Virus record (IMG/VR): IMGVR_UViG_2690316156_000010
From: a virus
Taxonomy: Duplodnaviria; Heunggongvirae; Uroviricota; Caudoviricetes
Strand: one strand, 5' to 3'
Length of the DNA stretch: 11,731 bases
Positions 5,811 through 9,993 of this stretch are shown piece after piece. The notes under the pieces are model-generated. The model was not told the origin of the DNA and searched no databases. It saw only the letters and a program-made list of their open reading frames with translations. The translations under genes were made by a program, and so were the position numbers. The stretch's first letter is position 1; every line of letters begins with the position of its first letter.

Positions 5811-7559
5811 TTATAAAAACGCGTCACAATCATCAGTTGTAATTGCGTTGGTCTGCGTTACTCCCTTAACTCTCCGCGTAATATATTCATGTCCGTAAAC
5901 TTTTGCCGCTGGCTTCATGGCCTTGCTGAACTCAGCCACGTTTAGCGGTTTGCTCCTGCCTGCGTATGCCATAAACGCCAGATAGACGCGGTAAAGGCTG
6001 TTTCTGGTCGTGTACTTCACGGAATCGCCACCGCCACCCATCATCAGGCCGCGCGCTTCCTCCAGAAAATTCAGGAACTGGCAAAACTCAATAACCGGAT
6101 CCGTCTGTTGCTTTATCGCCAGTGCTTCATCACCGTCGCGCTGTTCCAGTAATAAAGCCCGTGCCTTTTCAGGGTCGGCAAAATTAGCCAGCAAGCGACG
6201 GATAATTACGGGGATTTCAGCCGCGACCTTCTCCGGCAAATCCTTGTCTTTTTCGTCCTCCCTTACAATGTTGTCGAACCGGAAAATCACCCGACGGCGT
6301 GACACACCTCCGGCCCGCTCGGTGAATATCATCGGGTTATTGTTGGTAGCCAGCACCACCGCCCTGATTACCGCCGTGAAACGCTTTTCATATTTCGGGT
6401 TAATTTCCACGGGGTCGCCGCCTGTGATTTTCTTGATGCCCGTTCCTTCGCCTGTATATTTCGGCTGGTCAGCCAGGACGATAAGACGACTCCCGACAAC
6501 CTGCGCACGTCCACCAGCATCATCAAGCGATGTCATTTCAGCGCTTACCGTGTTCTGTTTCCCTGCCAGAAGGCTGGCTATGTGTGTGAATGTACTTTTA
6601 CCGCTACCGCCCTCTCCGGTGGCCTCAATAAACATCTGCCAGTCGTACCGGTTCGCCATAATCATGTACAGCGCGGCACATATACGCATCATCTTGCGCG
6701 AGTCTTTTCCGGCTGCGTGCTCAAGCCATTTATGAAAGTTTGGCGCGTTATCGCGGATGTTCTCCCCTGGTGCTGGTGGCGTGTACTCAATGCCGTTGTT
6801 CGTGGTGATCCAGTTCTCCGGCGTGTGCGGGGAAAATTCCCCCGTTTTCAGGTCAAGCGCACCATTGGCGAACGGCAGCAAATCGCCGGACGGCTCGCCC
6901 ATTGGTTCGGCAATAACTTTTAACGCTTCCACGGCGTTATTGATTACGCGCTTGCTGAAAGTGGCCCTGTGCTCTGAATAGATCGCCACCATTTCGCGGC
7001 TAAGTTCCATTGTGCTGACCGGACACCATACCCCGCCGCGCCATACGTGAACGATTTCACTTTCCGGATGCACACAAACGCCATCAAATCGACCAGCAAG
7101 CATCTGTGCGCGCTCACTGTCTGCCATTTGTGCCAGTTGCGTATTTTTCTGCTCCGGCATGGTAAGCCCTGCGGCAATATTTTCACGCTCAGCATTCAGA
7201 TAGCGCCGCCAGTTTTCACACTTCTGGACGTGCATTCCTTCGGGGTAAAAATTTGCGTCCTGAATATCTGCCGCCGCCAGCTTCTGACCAATCTTTTTGG
7301 TCTCCACCAAATCCAGTTCTCCGGCCTGGTACAGCCTTACGCGTTTTTTTCCATCAGGAACAATTTGCAGTGCATCAAGTTCGGCAAGCTGATTTGGCCC
7401 AAGCCACACAGGAGGCACATTATCGCCGGATGCGGGGCCGTCCTGCTCCTGCCACTGTTTTGCATGTGCCCACGCATCACTACCCGCGAAAATAATCACC
7501 TCTGTGTCTTTGTGTTTTATTCCGCGTGGCTGTTTTTTTACGTTCGGTGCCAGTTTCAT
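5811..7559 (-). CDS. Replication initiator: primase / D5-type helicase fusion (P4 alpha-like, 582 aa)
   Basis: Walker A P-loop GEGGSGKST mid-protein with a downstream LIVLAD hydrophobic-acidic stretch (Walker B-like); size and position (after small early ORFs, before ori) match satellite pri/rep genes. ATG at 7559-7557 overlaps the upstream stop. Confidence 0.85.
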   Translation of the reverse strand: MKLAPNVKKQPRGIKHKDTEVIIFAGSDAWAHAKQWQEQDGPASGDNVPPVWLGPNQLAELDALQIVPDGKKRVRLYQAGELDLVETKKIGQKLAAADIQDANFYPEGMHVQKCENWRRYLNAERENIAAGLTMPEQKNTQLAQMADSERAQMLAGRFDGVCVHPESEIVHVWRGGVWCPVSTMELSREMVAIYSEHRATFSKRVINNAVEALKVIAEPMGEPSGDLLPFANGALDLKTGEFSPHTPENWITTNNGIEYTPPAPGENIRDNAPNFHKWLEHAAGKDSRKMMRICAALYMIMANRYDWQMFIEATGEGGSGKSTFTHIASLLAGKQNTVSAEMTSLDDAGGRAQVVGSRLIVLADQPKYTGEGTGIKKITGGDPVEINPKYEKRFTAVIRAVVLATNNNPMIFTERAGGVSRRRVIFRFDNIVREDEKDKDLPEKVAAEIPVIIRRLLANFADPEKARALLLEQRDGDEALAIKQQTDPVIEFCQFLNFLEEARGLMMGGGGDSVKYTTRNSLYRVYLAFMAYAGRSKPLNVAEFSKAMKPAAKVYGHEYITRRVKGVTQTNAITTDDCDAFL

Positions 7560-7860: not shown

Positions 7861-8088
7861 TTATTCTCCGGTATGGGGCGAGTTATTATTCTCGTGAATT
7901 GCCATCACTGTATTTAATTCATTAATAACAGGCGTTAATAGCGTACGCACGGCAGAAAACATCATTGAATCAGATTCATCGCCACTTTCCGGCACATCAA
8001 TTAACTTAAGTAGTAATGCGTCCATTTCCTTTGCGAGGATTAATGCGTTTTCAGAATGAACAAGAACATCAAAGGGTATTTTATGCAT
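7861..8088 (-). CDS. Hypothetical protein, ~75 aa (track shows 7861-8190 from a start without a ribosome-binding site)
   Basis: ATG at 8088-8086 preceded by GGGGGGAG; this start overlaps the stop of the upstream ORF by 8 nt (ATGCATAA). Confidence 0.4.
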   Translation of the reverse strand: MHKIPFDVLVHSENALILAKEMDALLLKLIDVPESGDESDSMMFSAVRTLLTPVINELNTVMAIHENNNSPHTGE

Positions 8089-8545
8089 GACTCCCCCCCT
8101 GGCGAATACGGGCGACAAAAATAAGATGTGCGTGCGGCAGCTGTGCACGTGCTTCGCGCTCAGTGGCAGCGGTAACGGTGAATATTGCAATACTGTCTGT
8201 CAGGCACTGCATAAAGCGCCAGACAAAATAAGGGCGTGCGGATACAGCCATGTGAAAGGCTCCCAGATGAATTTTAAGGAGTCTCGCTACTACGCTGTCA
8301 AACATGGTGGCGAGACGTAACAGGGTTGACAGACTGGTCATCTGGAAACCAGCGAGCACAAAGGCTCCCCCGTTACGCCCCGCCATAATGCGGGTATGGG
8401 TAGGTTTACGGACACAAAAAAACCGCTTATCGGATGTGGGCGGCTGTCCGCCAGATGTATTCAGGCTGTCAAACCCGGTCGCCATGTGGGCGACGGGGGA
8501 AGCATACAGCCCCGTGATAATTTTTTGCAAGCGGTTTTTACGCAT
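8081..8545 (-). CDS. Repeat-unit ORF B (154 aa from ATG 8545) ending in an Icd-like small domain; an internal SD+ATG at 8251 could give an independent 56-aa product
   Basis: C-terminal 56 aa MAVSARPYFVWRF…TEREARAQLPHAHLIFVARIRQGGSHA is paralogous to two other copies; GGGAG lies 8 nt before the internal ATG at 8251. The ATG at 8545 overlaps the stop of ORF A. Icd-like assignment is from memory of similarly annotated small proteins in P4/PICI elements. Confidence 0.45.
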   Translation of the reverse strand: MRKNRLQKIITGLYASPVAHMATGFDSLNTSGGQPPTSDKRFFCVRKPTHTRIMAGRNGGAFVLAGFQMTSLSTLLRLATMFDSVVARLLKIHLGAFHMAVSARPYFVWRFMQCLTDSIAIFTVTAATEREARAQLPHAHLIFVARIRQGGSHA

Positions 8546-9095
8546 GATGTGACCCCTGACGAATACGAGCGGCAAATACAGCAACACAACCTGACGGGCA
8601 ACGGCTACGCGCTTCGCGTTCTGTCCAGGCGGTTACGTGGATGATTTGAGATTCTGACGCGCCAAAGATGATAAAGCGCCAGATAAATGCGGTTTGAGAA
8701 TGTACAAGGGTAGGGATAGTAGCCATGTTGGCAGCCTCCTCAGTGTGGTTAAGATAACCGCCACGCAAAAGGCTAATTTCGCTGGTGGCGGACTGTACAG
8801 GGTTAGCCTTACCGGACACTGAAGAAACCGGCGCGGATTGCTCCGCCCCCGTACAGCCCACCATTGATAAGGTGTGACTATGCGGCACAAAAAAACACGC
8901 GGGGCGCGTGCTGTGCGCTTCAGTTGTTTTCAGGAGGCTAATCCCGACACCCGTTTTATGAGGTGCGCGGGAATCATAGCCATTTTTGCTGGTGGCGATC
9001 AAGCGGTTTTTTTCTCCGGCACTCAGTGCCAGAAAACGCCACACAAAGGCCGTTTGTGTGTGTACAAGGTGTGGTATATGATTTACGGCAACCAT
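8538..9095 (-). CDS. Repeat-unit ORF A (185 aa from ATG 9095) carrying two Icd-like repeats; an internal SD+ATG at 8726 could give an independent 62-aa product
   Basis: N-terminal copy MVAVNHIPHLVHTQTAFVWRF (SD GGAG before 9095) and C-terminal copy MATIPTLVHSQTAFIWRF…TEREARSRC…FAARIRQGSHHA (SD GAGGAGG before 8726). Between the copies, differences are mostly synonymous in this frame (CAT/CAC, ACC/ACG, GCA/GCC, CGC/CGT) and non-synonymous in the plus frame, which supports minus-strand coding. Confidence 0.45.
   Translation of the reverse strand: MVAVNHIPHLVHTQTAFVWRFLALSAGEKNRLIATSKNGYDSRAPHKTGVGISLLKTTEAHSTRPACFFVPHSHTLSMVGCTGAEQSAPVSSVSGKANPVQSATSEISLLRGGYLNHTEEAANMATIPTLVHSQTAFIWRFIIFGASESQIIHVTAWTEREARSRCPSGCVAVFAARIRQGSHHA
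8889..8910 (-). terminator. Intrinsic-terminator-like hairpin plus U7 inside ORF A (possible attenuator)
   Basis: On the minus transcript CACGCG-CCC-CGCGUG followed by UUUUUUU (plus 8896-8910 with A7 at 8889-8895), about 190 nt after the ORF A start; the U-run encodes the conserved CFFV residues. Confidence 0.35.
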
Positions 9096-9104
9096 AACGG
9101 CTCC

Positions 9105-9224
9105 TAGTTTACGTTGTTGGTTAGAAGCCCCGTTACTGCTCCTACAGTGCGGGGCTTTGCTTTTTGTGTTGATTGTGTGTAATGTGTCATTACACATAAA
9201 TACATTACATGAGGTGTAATTAAC
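9105..9224. promoter_or_regulatory. Divergent control region between the RHH gene (plus) and the early/replication operon (minus), with operator-like palindromes
   Basis: Inverted repeat TGTGTAATG-N3-CATTACACA at 9176-9196, further half-sites CATTACA (9203-9209) and TGTAAT (9215-9220), and a 7-bp-stem hairpin at 9126-9156. I could not place convincing -35/-10 boxes. Confidence 0.45.
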
Positions 9225-9404
9225 GTGTCAACACACAAAAACGAAAGGCGTGGTAATCCTCCGTTCCAGTTCCGTTTAGATCCTGACTTACGGGAAAAGA
9301 TGGAAAAGGCACAACAACAGGACGGCGATGATTCTCTTGCTGCCTGGATAAAGCGAATAATCCGCAAAGAATTACAGCAACGCGGCATAGAACCCAAAGG
9401 ATAA
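9225..9404 (+). CDS. Arc/Mnt-type ribbon-helix-helix DNA-binding protein (59 aa, GTG start; not in the ORF track)
   Basis: GTG at 9225 with SD GAGGTG 8 nt upstream and an in-frame stop just before it; translation VSTHKNERRGNPPFQFRLDPDLREKMEKAQQQDGDDSLAAWIKRIIRKELQQRGIEPKG shows the beta-strand (FQFRL) then two helices typical of Arc/CopG-type repressors. The plus strand is purine-rich here, consistent with sense orientation. Confidence 0.6.
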   Translation: MSTHKNERRGNPPFQFRLDPDLREKMEKAQQQDGDDSLAAWIKRIIRKELQQRGIEPKG

Positions 9405-9461: not shown

Positions 9462-9638
9462 ATGACCAACGAAGAATCAACCGAAAAAACATCACCTGCA
9501 CGAAAAAGACGACGCAGAAAGAAAGAGCATGAATCAGAACGATTCGCGCCGTGTTCTTTTGCCCTTGAGAAGTACCTTAAAGAATACTCATCAAAGGAGA
9601 GAGCTTCGCAGTTATGGCAACGAACTGAACCAGACTGA
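9462..9638 (+). CDS. Possible small basic protein (58 aa) downstream of the RHH gene; coding status uncertain
   Basis: ATG at 9462, weak SD, Lys/Arg-rich N-terminus (ARKRRRRKK). An alternative plus frame (9529-9780) and an antisense ORF also exist, so the true product here is unresolved. Confidence 0.2.
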   Translation: MTNEESTEKTSPARKRRRRKKEHESERFAPCSFALEKYLKEYSSKERASQLWQRTEPD

Positions 9639-9734
9639 TTGCATTGCCCACCAGCCTGATAGCGGCTATCATCCCCGTGCTTATGTTTGGGATCACACAC
9701 ACAAACAGCGCAGCGGGTTATCTGTTCAGAAAGA

Positions 9735-9760
9735 CGGCTCCATATCGGGGCCGCTTTTTT
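9735..9760 (+). terminator. Candidate rho-independent terminator for the plus-strand RHH transcript
   Basis: CGGCTCC (9735-9741), loop ATATC, GGGGCCG (9747-9753), then TTTTTT (9755-9760). Confidence 0.4.
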
Positions 9761-9786
9761 CGTGTTTGTCATATCTGTGATACCCG

Positions 9787-9993
9787 TTAAGCAGCCGTTC
9801 CGCGTGCTTCCTCTTCGCGTTCTTTCTGCCAGGACAACACATCATCCTCATACCATCCGCGACGGCGTAAACCAACGCGAAAACCCTGCGGAAATTCTCC
9901 GGCGTTGATCATGCTTTGCAGCGTGCTGTCTGCCTTGATGTGGATAATTTTTTTTACTTCCTGGCGAAAGATAATTTTTCTGATTGCTTCCAT
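9787..9993 (-). CDS. alpA: AlpA-family (MerR-like HTH) transcriptional regulator, 68 aa
   Basis: …IRKIIFRQEV…STLQSMINAGEFPQGFRVGLRRRGWYEDDVLSWQ matches the AlpA pattern (…FP.p.klg.R.v.W.e.ev..W…) and the position just downstream of int is typical for PICI-type islands. ATG at 9993-9991. Confidence 0.7.
   Translation of the reverse strand: MEAIRKIIFRQEVKKIIHIKADSTLQSMINAGEFPQGFRVGLRRRGWYEDDVLSWQKEREEEARGTAA

Follow-up and report, generated by a model that had tools for sequence, protein, structure and literature searches.

Among the closest known relatives of the element analysed here is the immunity region of the satellite phage P4, whose seqA and CI RNAs correspond to IsrK and C4 in Rfam (PMC3632133; PMC4825925). 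In P4, a constitutive promoter lies inside eta, and the transcripts that start from it are terminated through interactions between CI and seqA (PMC10111431). Read-through yields Kil, a truncated Eta, and only transcription from a late promoter further upstream gives the full Eta; translation of eta prevents termination (PMC10111431, citing Forti 1999). When the P4 genome was searched with the Rfam models, isrK was found with 60.8 bits (8692-8615) and C4 with 74.9 bits (8507-8420). A scan of P4 positions 8150-8850 gave exactly one promoter, TTGCCT-18-TATAGT, which has the geometry of PLE, and one terminator, GACGCGCCACGCGTC followed by T7 (8635-8621). The C4/CI loop of P4, CCUGUGAA, complements UUCACAGG twice, once 5' of the terminator and once in the Shine-Dalgarno (SD) region of kil. 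In 2000, Briani and co-workers reportedly described a typical intrinsic terminator, t1, between PLE and cI, which is enhanced by CI RNA via seqA. By this description and the terminator scan, the hairpin at 8635-8621 is presumably t1.

Related arrangements occur elsewhere. In Gifsy-1, IsrK (RF01394) ends in a leaky Rho-independent terminator, behind which a processed C4-type RNA of about 80 nt, STnc1160, is found inside a translated upstream ORF (PMC4825925). The immI region of P1/P7 has the order a1b1 - c4 - a2b2 - icd - ant (RF03163, RF01695), with the SD of icd as the target of antisense control. C4 and isrK Rfam matches have also been found in the 'Bro zone' of several enterobacterial phage-inducible chromosomal islands (PICIs; PMC10111431).

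The stretch of DNA analysed in this study (hereafter the window) is 11,731 nucleotides long. The island that it represents was found in E. coli at tRNA-Pro, beside yejM. Its genes include those for an integrase, an AlpA-like ORF, a D5-type primase, SSB, PerC, and the lambda-type capsid protein E and decoration protein D. The set of integrase, primase, SSB and capsid genes and the tRNA-Pro site therefore identify it as a PICI-like satellite of about 11 kb. It resembles the enterobacterial and helper-embedded PICIs that Mageeney et al. (2023) described with capsid E genes, which are also about 11 kb in size and possess integrase, primase/SSB and capsid genes; the location at tRNA-Pro next to yejM is a difference from them. 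This carrier also differs from P4, an alpha/sid/psu/delta element, in that its primase is of the D5 type and its capsid genes are lambda E/D. The features of the region in question (module 1) are as follows.

8538-9095, minus strand: ORF A, Eta/Ash-type, 185 aa, ATG 9095-9093, SD AGGAG
8973-9002, minus strand: internal sigma-70-like promoter TTGATC-18-TATGAT within ORF A, analogue of P4 PLE
8890-8966, minus strand: IsrK/seqA-type leader RNA with hairpin 1, hairpin 2, linker and terminator (Rfam RF01394)
8935-8941, minus strand: b1-like target UUAGCCU in the hairpin-2 loop, complement of the C4 junction AGGCUAA
8918-8924, minus strand: seqA-like target ACUGAAG, 5-7 nt upstream of the terminator stem, complement of C4 loop-2 CUUCAGU
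8889-8910, minus strand: probable intrinsic-terminator hairpin with U7, counterpart of the P4 hairpin with U7 at 8635-8621
8882-8918, minus strand: outer helix GCG-CACA 8918-8912 / UGUG-c-CGC 8889-8882 from MFE folds, enclosing the terminator and the U-run
8781-8868, minus strand: C4/CI-type antisense RNA of module 1 (Rfam RF01695, 75.4 bits, cut-off 45)
8769-8776, minus strand: b2-like target UUAGCCUU downstream of C4, from the exact-complement search
8735-8746, minus strand: seqC-like target ACACUGAGGAGG, covering the SD of kil/icd-like ORF 1
8538-8726, minus strand: kil/icd-like ORF 1, 62 aa, ATG 8726, nested in frame within ORF A

The original prediction had pointed to an intrinsic-terminator-like structure inside ORF A, consisting of a GC hairpin and seven U residues about 190 nt after the ORF A start. 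The hairpin and the U-run are indeed present on the minus strand, the coordinates 8889-8910 are exact, and the stem begins 185 nt past the ATG at 9095. In the minus-strand sequence from 8914 to 8888, ACAGCACGCGCCCCGCGUGUUUUUUUG, the stem is formed by C8910-G8905 and C8901-G8896 (6 bp, of which 5 are GC) with the loop CCC (8904-8902), and it can be extended to 8 pairs by G8911.U8895 and A8912-U8894. The U7 (8895-8889) abuts the stem directly. What is expected of an intrinsic terminator (a GC-rich stem of at least 5 bp, a short loop and at least 5 U residues within 0-2 nt) can thus be read from the sequence, and the consensus terminator scan lists the site with 8 pairs, 5 GC, a loop of 3 and the tail TTTTTGTGCC. 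The 30-nt hairpin folds with -11 kcal/mol, compared with -4.8 +/- 1.8 kcal/mol for shuffled sequences (z -3.4; 1 of 200 shuffles was equal), the overall range being -10 to -11 kcal/mol. The pair probability of the terminator was about 0.77 with leaders of 77, 206 and 306 nt, that is, with any plausible 5' end. Folding of these three leader lengths gave no trp-type antiterminator helix that competes with terminator 1. A classical trp-type ribosome-sensing attenuator was rejected for this terminator, as mutually exclusive hairpins were not found.

The bare pattern of a hairpin and a U-run is weak evidence and is unremarkable on its own; the window holds 23 terminator-like sites, compared with 14.4 +/- 3.6 expected from shuffles. 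The hairpin is raised above chance because the isrK match of Rfam ends in it and because it is conserved among related loci. The isrK model (RF01394) matched with 61.8 bits (cut-off 50; E 1.5e-11) over its full length, model positions 1-77. Two 5' hairpins, a linker and the GC hairpin with its U tail were seen in both the MFE and the centroid folds of the leader RNA of about 77 nt. The internal promoter ends 7 nt before 8966, which is the first base of the isrK match, and the predicted TSS is at about 8966. By its fold, the Rfam match and its conservation, the structure is a credible terminator. The original prediction noticed it but overlooked the surroundings, namely the promoter of its own and the IsrK/seqA-type RNA, which were revealed by the promoter scan and the Rfam search.

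The C4/CI-type RNA follows the terminator after 22 nt, and its fold has an energy of -47.1 kcal/mol (z -5.5 against shuffles). Its loop 2, CUUCAGUGU, is complementary to ACUGAAG (8924-8918) and to ACACUGAGGAGG (8746-8735), and its junction segment, AAGGCUAA, complements UUAGCCU (8941-8935) and UUAGCCUU (8776-8769). The contact between ACACUGAGGAGG and loop 2 comprises 7 Watson-Crick pairs (ACACTGA from the search), or 12 pairs when G.U is included, the extension having been read from the sequence. These contacts come from exact-complement searches, which were used instead of RNAduplex; on the full-length RNAs the latter gave long, unrealistic duplexes with poor z-scores. In L001, a locus with 98% identity, the ORF whose SD is covered, ORF 1, carries the PGAP label 'host cell division inhibitor Icd-like protein'. 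The likeness to P4 immunity had been proposed before, and it holds; the downstream C4/CI-type antisense RNA with its matching targets, found by the Rfam and complement searches, had been missed.

The resemblance to P4 is a true homology, since isrK and C4 are found in both and Phage_ASH of Pfam matches both ORF A and the translation of P4 eta. P4 and the window share the order PLE, seqA, hairpin with U7, CI, (seqC) and kil, nested in eta, as well as the promoter geometry; the isrK and C4 matches in the P4 genome have the same order as in the window. In both, the start codon of a longer ORF precedes the internal promoter, and this ORF shares its reading frame with kil. ORF A begins upstream of the internal promoter (-35 at 9002), spans the isrK-like RNA, the terminator and C4, and enters the kil-like ORF in frame. 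Its Phage_ASH match has 44.2 bits (cut-off 26; aa 40-133). The P4 eta translation matches with 82.4 bits over residues 22-146, which correspond to the translated seqA-terminator-CI region, and BLASTP of ORF A against this translation gave an E value of 1e-5. A search of genome contigs with ORF A as query found a single locus, in Shigella. We consider it probable that the hairpin with U7 acts as a Rho-independent terminator and forms the 3' end of a leader RNA of the IsrK/seqA type in a P4-type immunity module.

There are also differences from P4, some of which count against this P4-type reading. The terminator-to-C4 gap is 107 nt in P4, compared with the short spacing in the window. P4 eta is coupled to the alpA/vis homologue, whereas ORF A, preceded by a leader of about 100 nt, is equipped with an SD of its own and is uncoupled from the alpA homologue, which counts against the reading; the AlpA-like ORF (9790-9993, a weak Pfam match) lies about 700 nt upstream of ORF A, beyond a plus-strand ORF. 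The N-terminus of ORF A is a remnant of an Icd-like gene; in repeat D1, its first 27 codons or so are a duplicate of those that open the Icd-like ORFs. Also to be counted against the reading is that PGAP treats the counterpart of ORF A in a 98% identical locus as a pseudogene. The consensus scan of the minus strand gave no good match for the promoter that was called the hub promoter in the original prediction, which is a further point against it. A candidate analogue of PLL, TTGACA at 9231-9226, has a poor -10 and is absent from the promoter scan list. Finally, the work of Forti in 1999 is said to have assigned the protection by eta translation mainly to a Rho-dependent site, timm, and not specifically to the intrinsic terminator, which again speaks against the P4-type reading.

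It is possible, though on balance doubtful, that the terminator has another role, namely in producing a short RNA that acts in trans and turns on the translation of the ORFs downstream. The short RNA would then pair with the read-through transcript or titrate the C4-like RNA, and the element would not mainly be an immunity attenuator. The model for this is Gifsy-1, where some transcripts pass the IsrK terminator and the short form of IsrK acts in trans to stimulate the translation of orf45/anrP (PMC4825925). The window element scores above the isrK gathering score, its terminator is followed by a C4-type RNA, and this RNA lies inside an upstream ORF as STnc1160 does. In addition, the IsrK-like hairpin 2, AGCCUCCU, is also complementary to AGGAGGCU, which is the SD belonging to the kil-like ORF. 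The context, however, with integrase, primase and nested eta/kil-type ORFs in a satellite island, is that of P4 rather than of the Gifsy-1 antQ/anrP region; in Gifsy-1 the downstream genes are orf45-anrP, controlling antQ, and in the window they are a kil/icd-like ORF and replication genes. It is worth noting that the activator and immunity readings are compatible, the same terminator being needed by both.

The P4-type immunity reading was further analyzed in related loci, which were collected from IMG/VR by a C4 pattern. The promoter, the hairpin and the U-run keep their positions in about 60 of them, and the promoter is at a fixed distance in 68/68 unique loci. A run of at least five T was found 51-106 nt upstream of the conserved GGTTTC motif inside C4 at 111 of the 119 C4-pattern sites that had enough upstream sequence, and the 8 exceptions are mostly chance matches of the pattern. 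Nearly all distinct sequences have a hairpin directly before the T-run, and those of the short-loop type fold with -6 to -10 kcal/mol. Distant loci use different stems, such as GUCCG/CGGGC and AGCCGC/GCGGCU. With 25 short-loop sequences, RNAalifold independently predicted hairpin 1, hairpin 2 and the terminator, with helices that are 99-100% paired. The terminator is 100% paired in these sequences, its basal pair being exchanged between C-G and G-C in a ratio of 14:11, and hairpin 1 shows compensatory changes at all six pairs; every control was far lower. Among 13 further loci, isrK or c4-a1b1 was found at the gathering level upstream of 11 of the 15 C4 sites.

The antisense contacts covary as well. 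In 56 distinct loci, which have more than 20 C4 loop specificities, the C4 loop matches its own linker over a mean of 7.0 nt and its own downstream SD region over a mean of 8.1 nt, compared with 4.2 and 4.6 nt for non-cognate combinations. Since loop and target change together throughout these specificities, the survey gives comparative support for an antisense RNA acting beside the terminator.

The Rfam model lacks the outer helix, whose formation requires the read-through RNA. In the MAFFT alignment it was shifted out of register in many rows, with 66% of the cells paired. It was therefore judged by duplex energies in the related loci, where the cognate flanks gave -8.9 kcal/mol and non-cognate ones -5.9 kcal/mol. 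The hairpin and the outer helix might direct nuclease release of the C4 precursor or shield a 3' end, with little termination. Both the need for read-through before the helix can form and its covariation among loci would agree with this, as would the fact that C4/CI RNAs arise from a longer transcript by processing (PMC4825925). In essentially all related loci, however, a U-run of 5-7 abutting the stem is kept; this is the signature of intrinsic termination and would be superfluous for a processing site. We therefore regard a processing or stability element with little termination as improbable.

An explanation by coding alone is still harder to maintain, and we give it very little credence. 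According to it, the hairpin and the U-run are nothing more than coding sequence of ORF A (..RPACFFV..), without a function at the RNA level. The frame is indeed open across the region in the window. Of 68 related loci, 50, P4 included, likewise have no stop in the kil/icd frame when it is followed upstream across C4, the terminator and the leader, and a protein family, Phage_ASH, exists in Pfam for the region. The stem changes are, however, compensated while the peptide varies, and the U-run occurs in all three codon phases (17, 22 and 29 loci). The P1-type loci keep the hairpin and the U-run without an open frame. These two facts indicate that the RNA structure is conserved, not the peptide. 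The Rfam covariance models scoring above threshold also argue against coincidence. The P1-type hairpin differs in its long loop and shorter U-run. The converse view, in which ORF A is a spurious frame over non-coding RNAs, was rejected too: related loci have start codons in this frame a short distance before the internal -35, and the open frame with its upstream start codon recurs in P4-type loci, including P4. A terminator for opposite transcripts, using the palindrome on the plus strand (hairpin 8901-8921, tail AGTTGTTTTC), is listed by the scan but is hardly credible, as the tail is poor, no plus-strand gene lies upstream and every homologous feature is on the minus strand.

The P4-type module just described is followed by a second, weaker module on the minus strand (8530-8081). 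Its features are as follows.

8501-8530, minus strand: internal promoter TTGCAA-18-TATGCT of module 2
8458-8507, minus strand: a1b1/seqA-type hairpins of module 2 (Rfam RF03163 c4-a1b1, 46.8 bits, cut-off 46.7, marginal)
8416-8443, minus strand: weak terminator counterpart CCGC(8443-8440)...GCGG(8426-8423) with U7 (8422-8416)
8303-8390, minus strand: C4/CI-type antisense RNA of module 2, loop CCAGAUGA (Rfam RF01695, 72.6 bits; z -6.5)
8081-8545, minus strand: Eta-like ORF of module 2, 154 aa, ATG 8545; the start codon lies before promoter 2 (-35 at 8530) and overlaps the last bases of ORF 1

The isrK model reached 35.2 bits on the leader of module 2, which is sub-threshold. The targets are a loop-2 site, CAUCUGG, at 8457-8451 and a b1 site, UUGACAG, at 8472-8466. 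The loop CCAGAUGA contacts CAUCUGG and UCAUCUGG, and CUGUCAA contacts UUGACAG twice, which gives four contacts as in module 1. An icd-like ORF 2 (ATG 8251) is nested in the Eta-like ORF, and its SD region, UCAUCUGGGAG (8270-8260), matches the loop of the second C4. The PGAP names in L001 support a kil/icd-like ORF after each C4. Phage_ASH of Pfam gave no match in the Eta-like ORF of module 2. With the c4-a1b1 cut-off reached, a C4 and an icd-like ORF, module 2 resembles the P1/P7 immI region, in which icd is likewise the site of antisense control.

The original prediction had also held that weaker U-rich hairpins recur at the equivalent place in the other repeat units. This applies to one unit, module 2, where the hairpin has a 4-bp stem with a 13-nt loop; the 29-nt segment 8440-8412 folds with -2.9 kcal/mol (z -0.2), and folding showed competing helices at this terminator. 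It does not apply to the truncated unit 9095-8967, which has no counterpart of the terminator hairpin.

Two tandem modules with different specificities distinguish the window from P4. The exact-complement search found no antisense matches between modules 1 and 2. Tandem pairs of modules were detected with Rfam in 2 of 13 further loci; an earlier pattern-based count of 3 in 122 was too strict. The start of the Eta-like ORF overlaps the end of ORF 1, and the next start (8088) is overlapped by ORF 2. These overlaps of successive starts and stops indicate that the operon is translationally chained. As a tentative suggestion, which we think rather unlikely as a whole, the pair might form a double RNA lock, or one module might act against a competing satellite or helper, and the outer helix may be a separate functional element. 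Each module has its own predicted promoter, targets, terminator, C4 and nested ORFs, and if the double lock is real, the replication genes would need both to be open because the modules are chained by the start/stop overlaps. The outer helix, if separate, could serve, for instance, as a signal for the processing step that frees the C4 precursor.

The anatomy of the element and its covariation are established at the level of sequence analysis. From P4 and from IsrK of Gifsy-1, we infer termination, its dependence on C4 and protection by translation for the window element, and the following mechanism is the most likely. Most transcripts from the internal promoter would end at the hairpin as a short RNA. 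Some would be read through and processed to the C4-like RNA, which would pair beside the terminator and increase termination, a form of autoregulation, and would also block the downstream SD. Termination and SD blocking together would silence the replication genes and the kil-like gene. In this model, the start codon of ORF A is present on transcripts that begin at the hub promoter, and by the P4 precedent they would escape because ORF A, like eta, is translated across the terminator, the ribosomes crossing the hairpin preventing termination. Such read-through would allow the translationally coupled operon to be expressed. The original prediction had the hub-promoter transcripts as those that are stopped, which is probably the reverse of the actual situation; in P4 it is the internal-promoter transcripts that are terminated and those from the upstream promoter that escape (PMC10111431). 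The need for escape from the terminator, which had been foreseen as antitermination, would remain, but its means would be translation of ORF A and not a dedicated factor.

The device itself is already known from P4 and enterobacterial PICIs, and the window is a further example of it. Only two features go beyond the published accounts that were compared: the tandem arrangement of heteroimmune modules and the outer helix with its covariation. For the field, the result is a confirmation and an extension rather than a surprise. It also explains the 'ash family' pseudogenes and the oversized 'Icd-like' proteins of annotation pipelines, since such ORFs are read through non-coding RNAs. The model predicts which RNAs and which 3' ends are to be expected from this region. 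For the island, the first genes would gain a regulatory logic, that of P4-type RNA immunity instead of a plain operon.

The terminator hairpin within ORF A (stem 8910-8896, U-run 8895-8889, minus strand), at the 3' end of the isrK/seqA-type RNA, is enclosed together with its U-run by a further pairing.

8918-8912 paired with 8889-8882, minus strand: outer helix, GCGCACA/UGUGcCGC in the window

Counterparts were found at the equivalent position in the related loci L004, L006, L012, L025, L049 and L101 and in satellite phage P4 (L123, 8647-8608), and the arms in other loci read GCGAUAU/AUAUCGC or GCAGACA/UGUCUGC. The outer helix covaries, with -8.9 kcal/mol for cognate flanks versus -5.9 kcal/mol for non-cognate ones. 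The read-through RNA is the only RNA able to form this helix, which is not included in the Rfam isrK model.

Within 8897-8878 (minus strand), on a reading of the sequence alone in the frame of ORF A, the U-run is U_UUU_UUU, a classical -1 slippery heptamer, and the -1 frame reaches a UAG stop (8880-8878) three codons on. P4 does not conserve this codon phase.

A common segment was observed in the -35 regions of both internal promoters.

9013-9001, minus strand: AAAAA(AA)CCGCUU(G), first internal promoter
8539-8528, minus strand: AAAAA(AA)CCGCUU(G), second internal promoter

This segment and the terminator of module 2, AAGCGGUUUUUUU (8428-8416, minus strand), are perfect complements of each other (inverted repeat I3). 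In the minimum free energy fold of an RNA begun upstream of promoter 2, the two were paired and the U-run was sequestered. The pairing may act as a read-through-specific antiterminator.

Consecutive early genes on the minus strand overlap, start on stop.

8545, minus strand: ATG overlapping the TAA at 8540
8088, minus strand: ATG overlapping the TAA at 8083
7559, minus strand: primase ATG overlapping the DUF4222 stop at 7556

Such an arrangement fits a ribosome relay along the entire operon. Upstream, the hub region (9100-9235) holds a near-perfect palindrome, TTGTGTGTAATG/CATTACACATAA (9173-9199), between ORF A and a divergent plus-strand ORF of 59 aa (9225-9404), for which no match was found in Pfam. 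The palindrome has the look of an operator for a protein-based switch placed ahead of the RNA modules. Two terminator-like hairpins with T-rich tails were also found.

9129-9160, plus strand: in the ORF A leader region, with no obvious plus-strand gene for it to terminate
9735-9763, plus strand: after an 83-aa ORF (9529-9780)

The Pfam Phage_ASH match spans the translated isrK-like and C4 RNAs (8697-8978, minus strand). In the 98% identical locus L001 (9032-10046), PGAP names an 'ash family protein' (pseudogene) and a 154-aa 'Icd-like protein' over the translation of the same RNAs. Protein annotation in this region mostly describes RNA genes nested inside eta-type ORFs.

The N-terminus of ORF A (..PHLVHTQTAFVWRF.., 9095-9015, minus strand) is a repeat of the beginning of each Icd-like ORF (8726-8650 and 8251-8200; repeats D1/D2). 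It is apparently a third unit that has been truncated, with its junction to module 1 at the conserved AAAAACCGCTTG. Full promoter-seqA-terminator-C4-kil modules are in tandem in the window (8966-8538 and 8530-8081, minus strand), and also in L103, L100, L004 (6535-7379) and L006 (4574-5421). The loop specificities of tandem modules do not match each other. Since L103 has the same first module as the window but a different second module, the comparison suggests module swapping.
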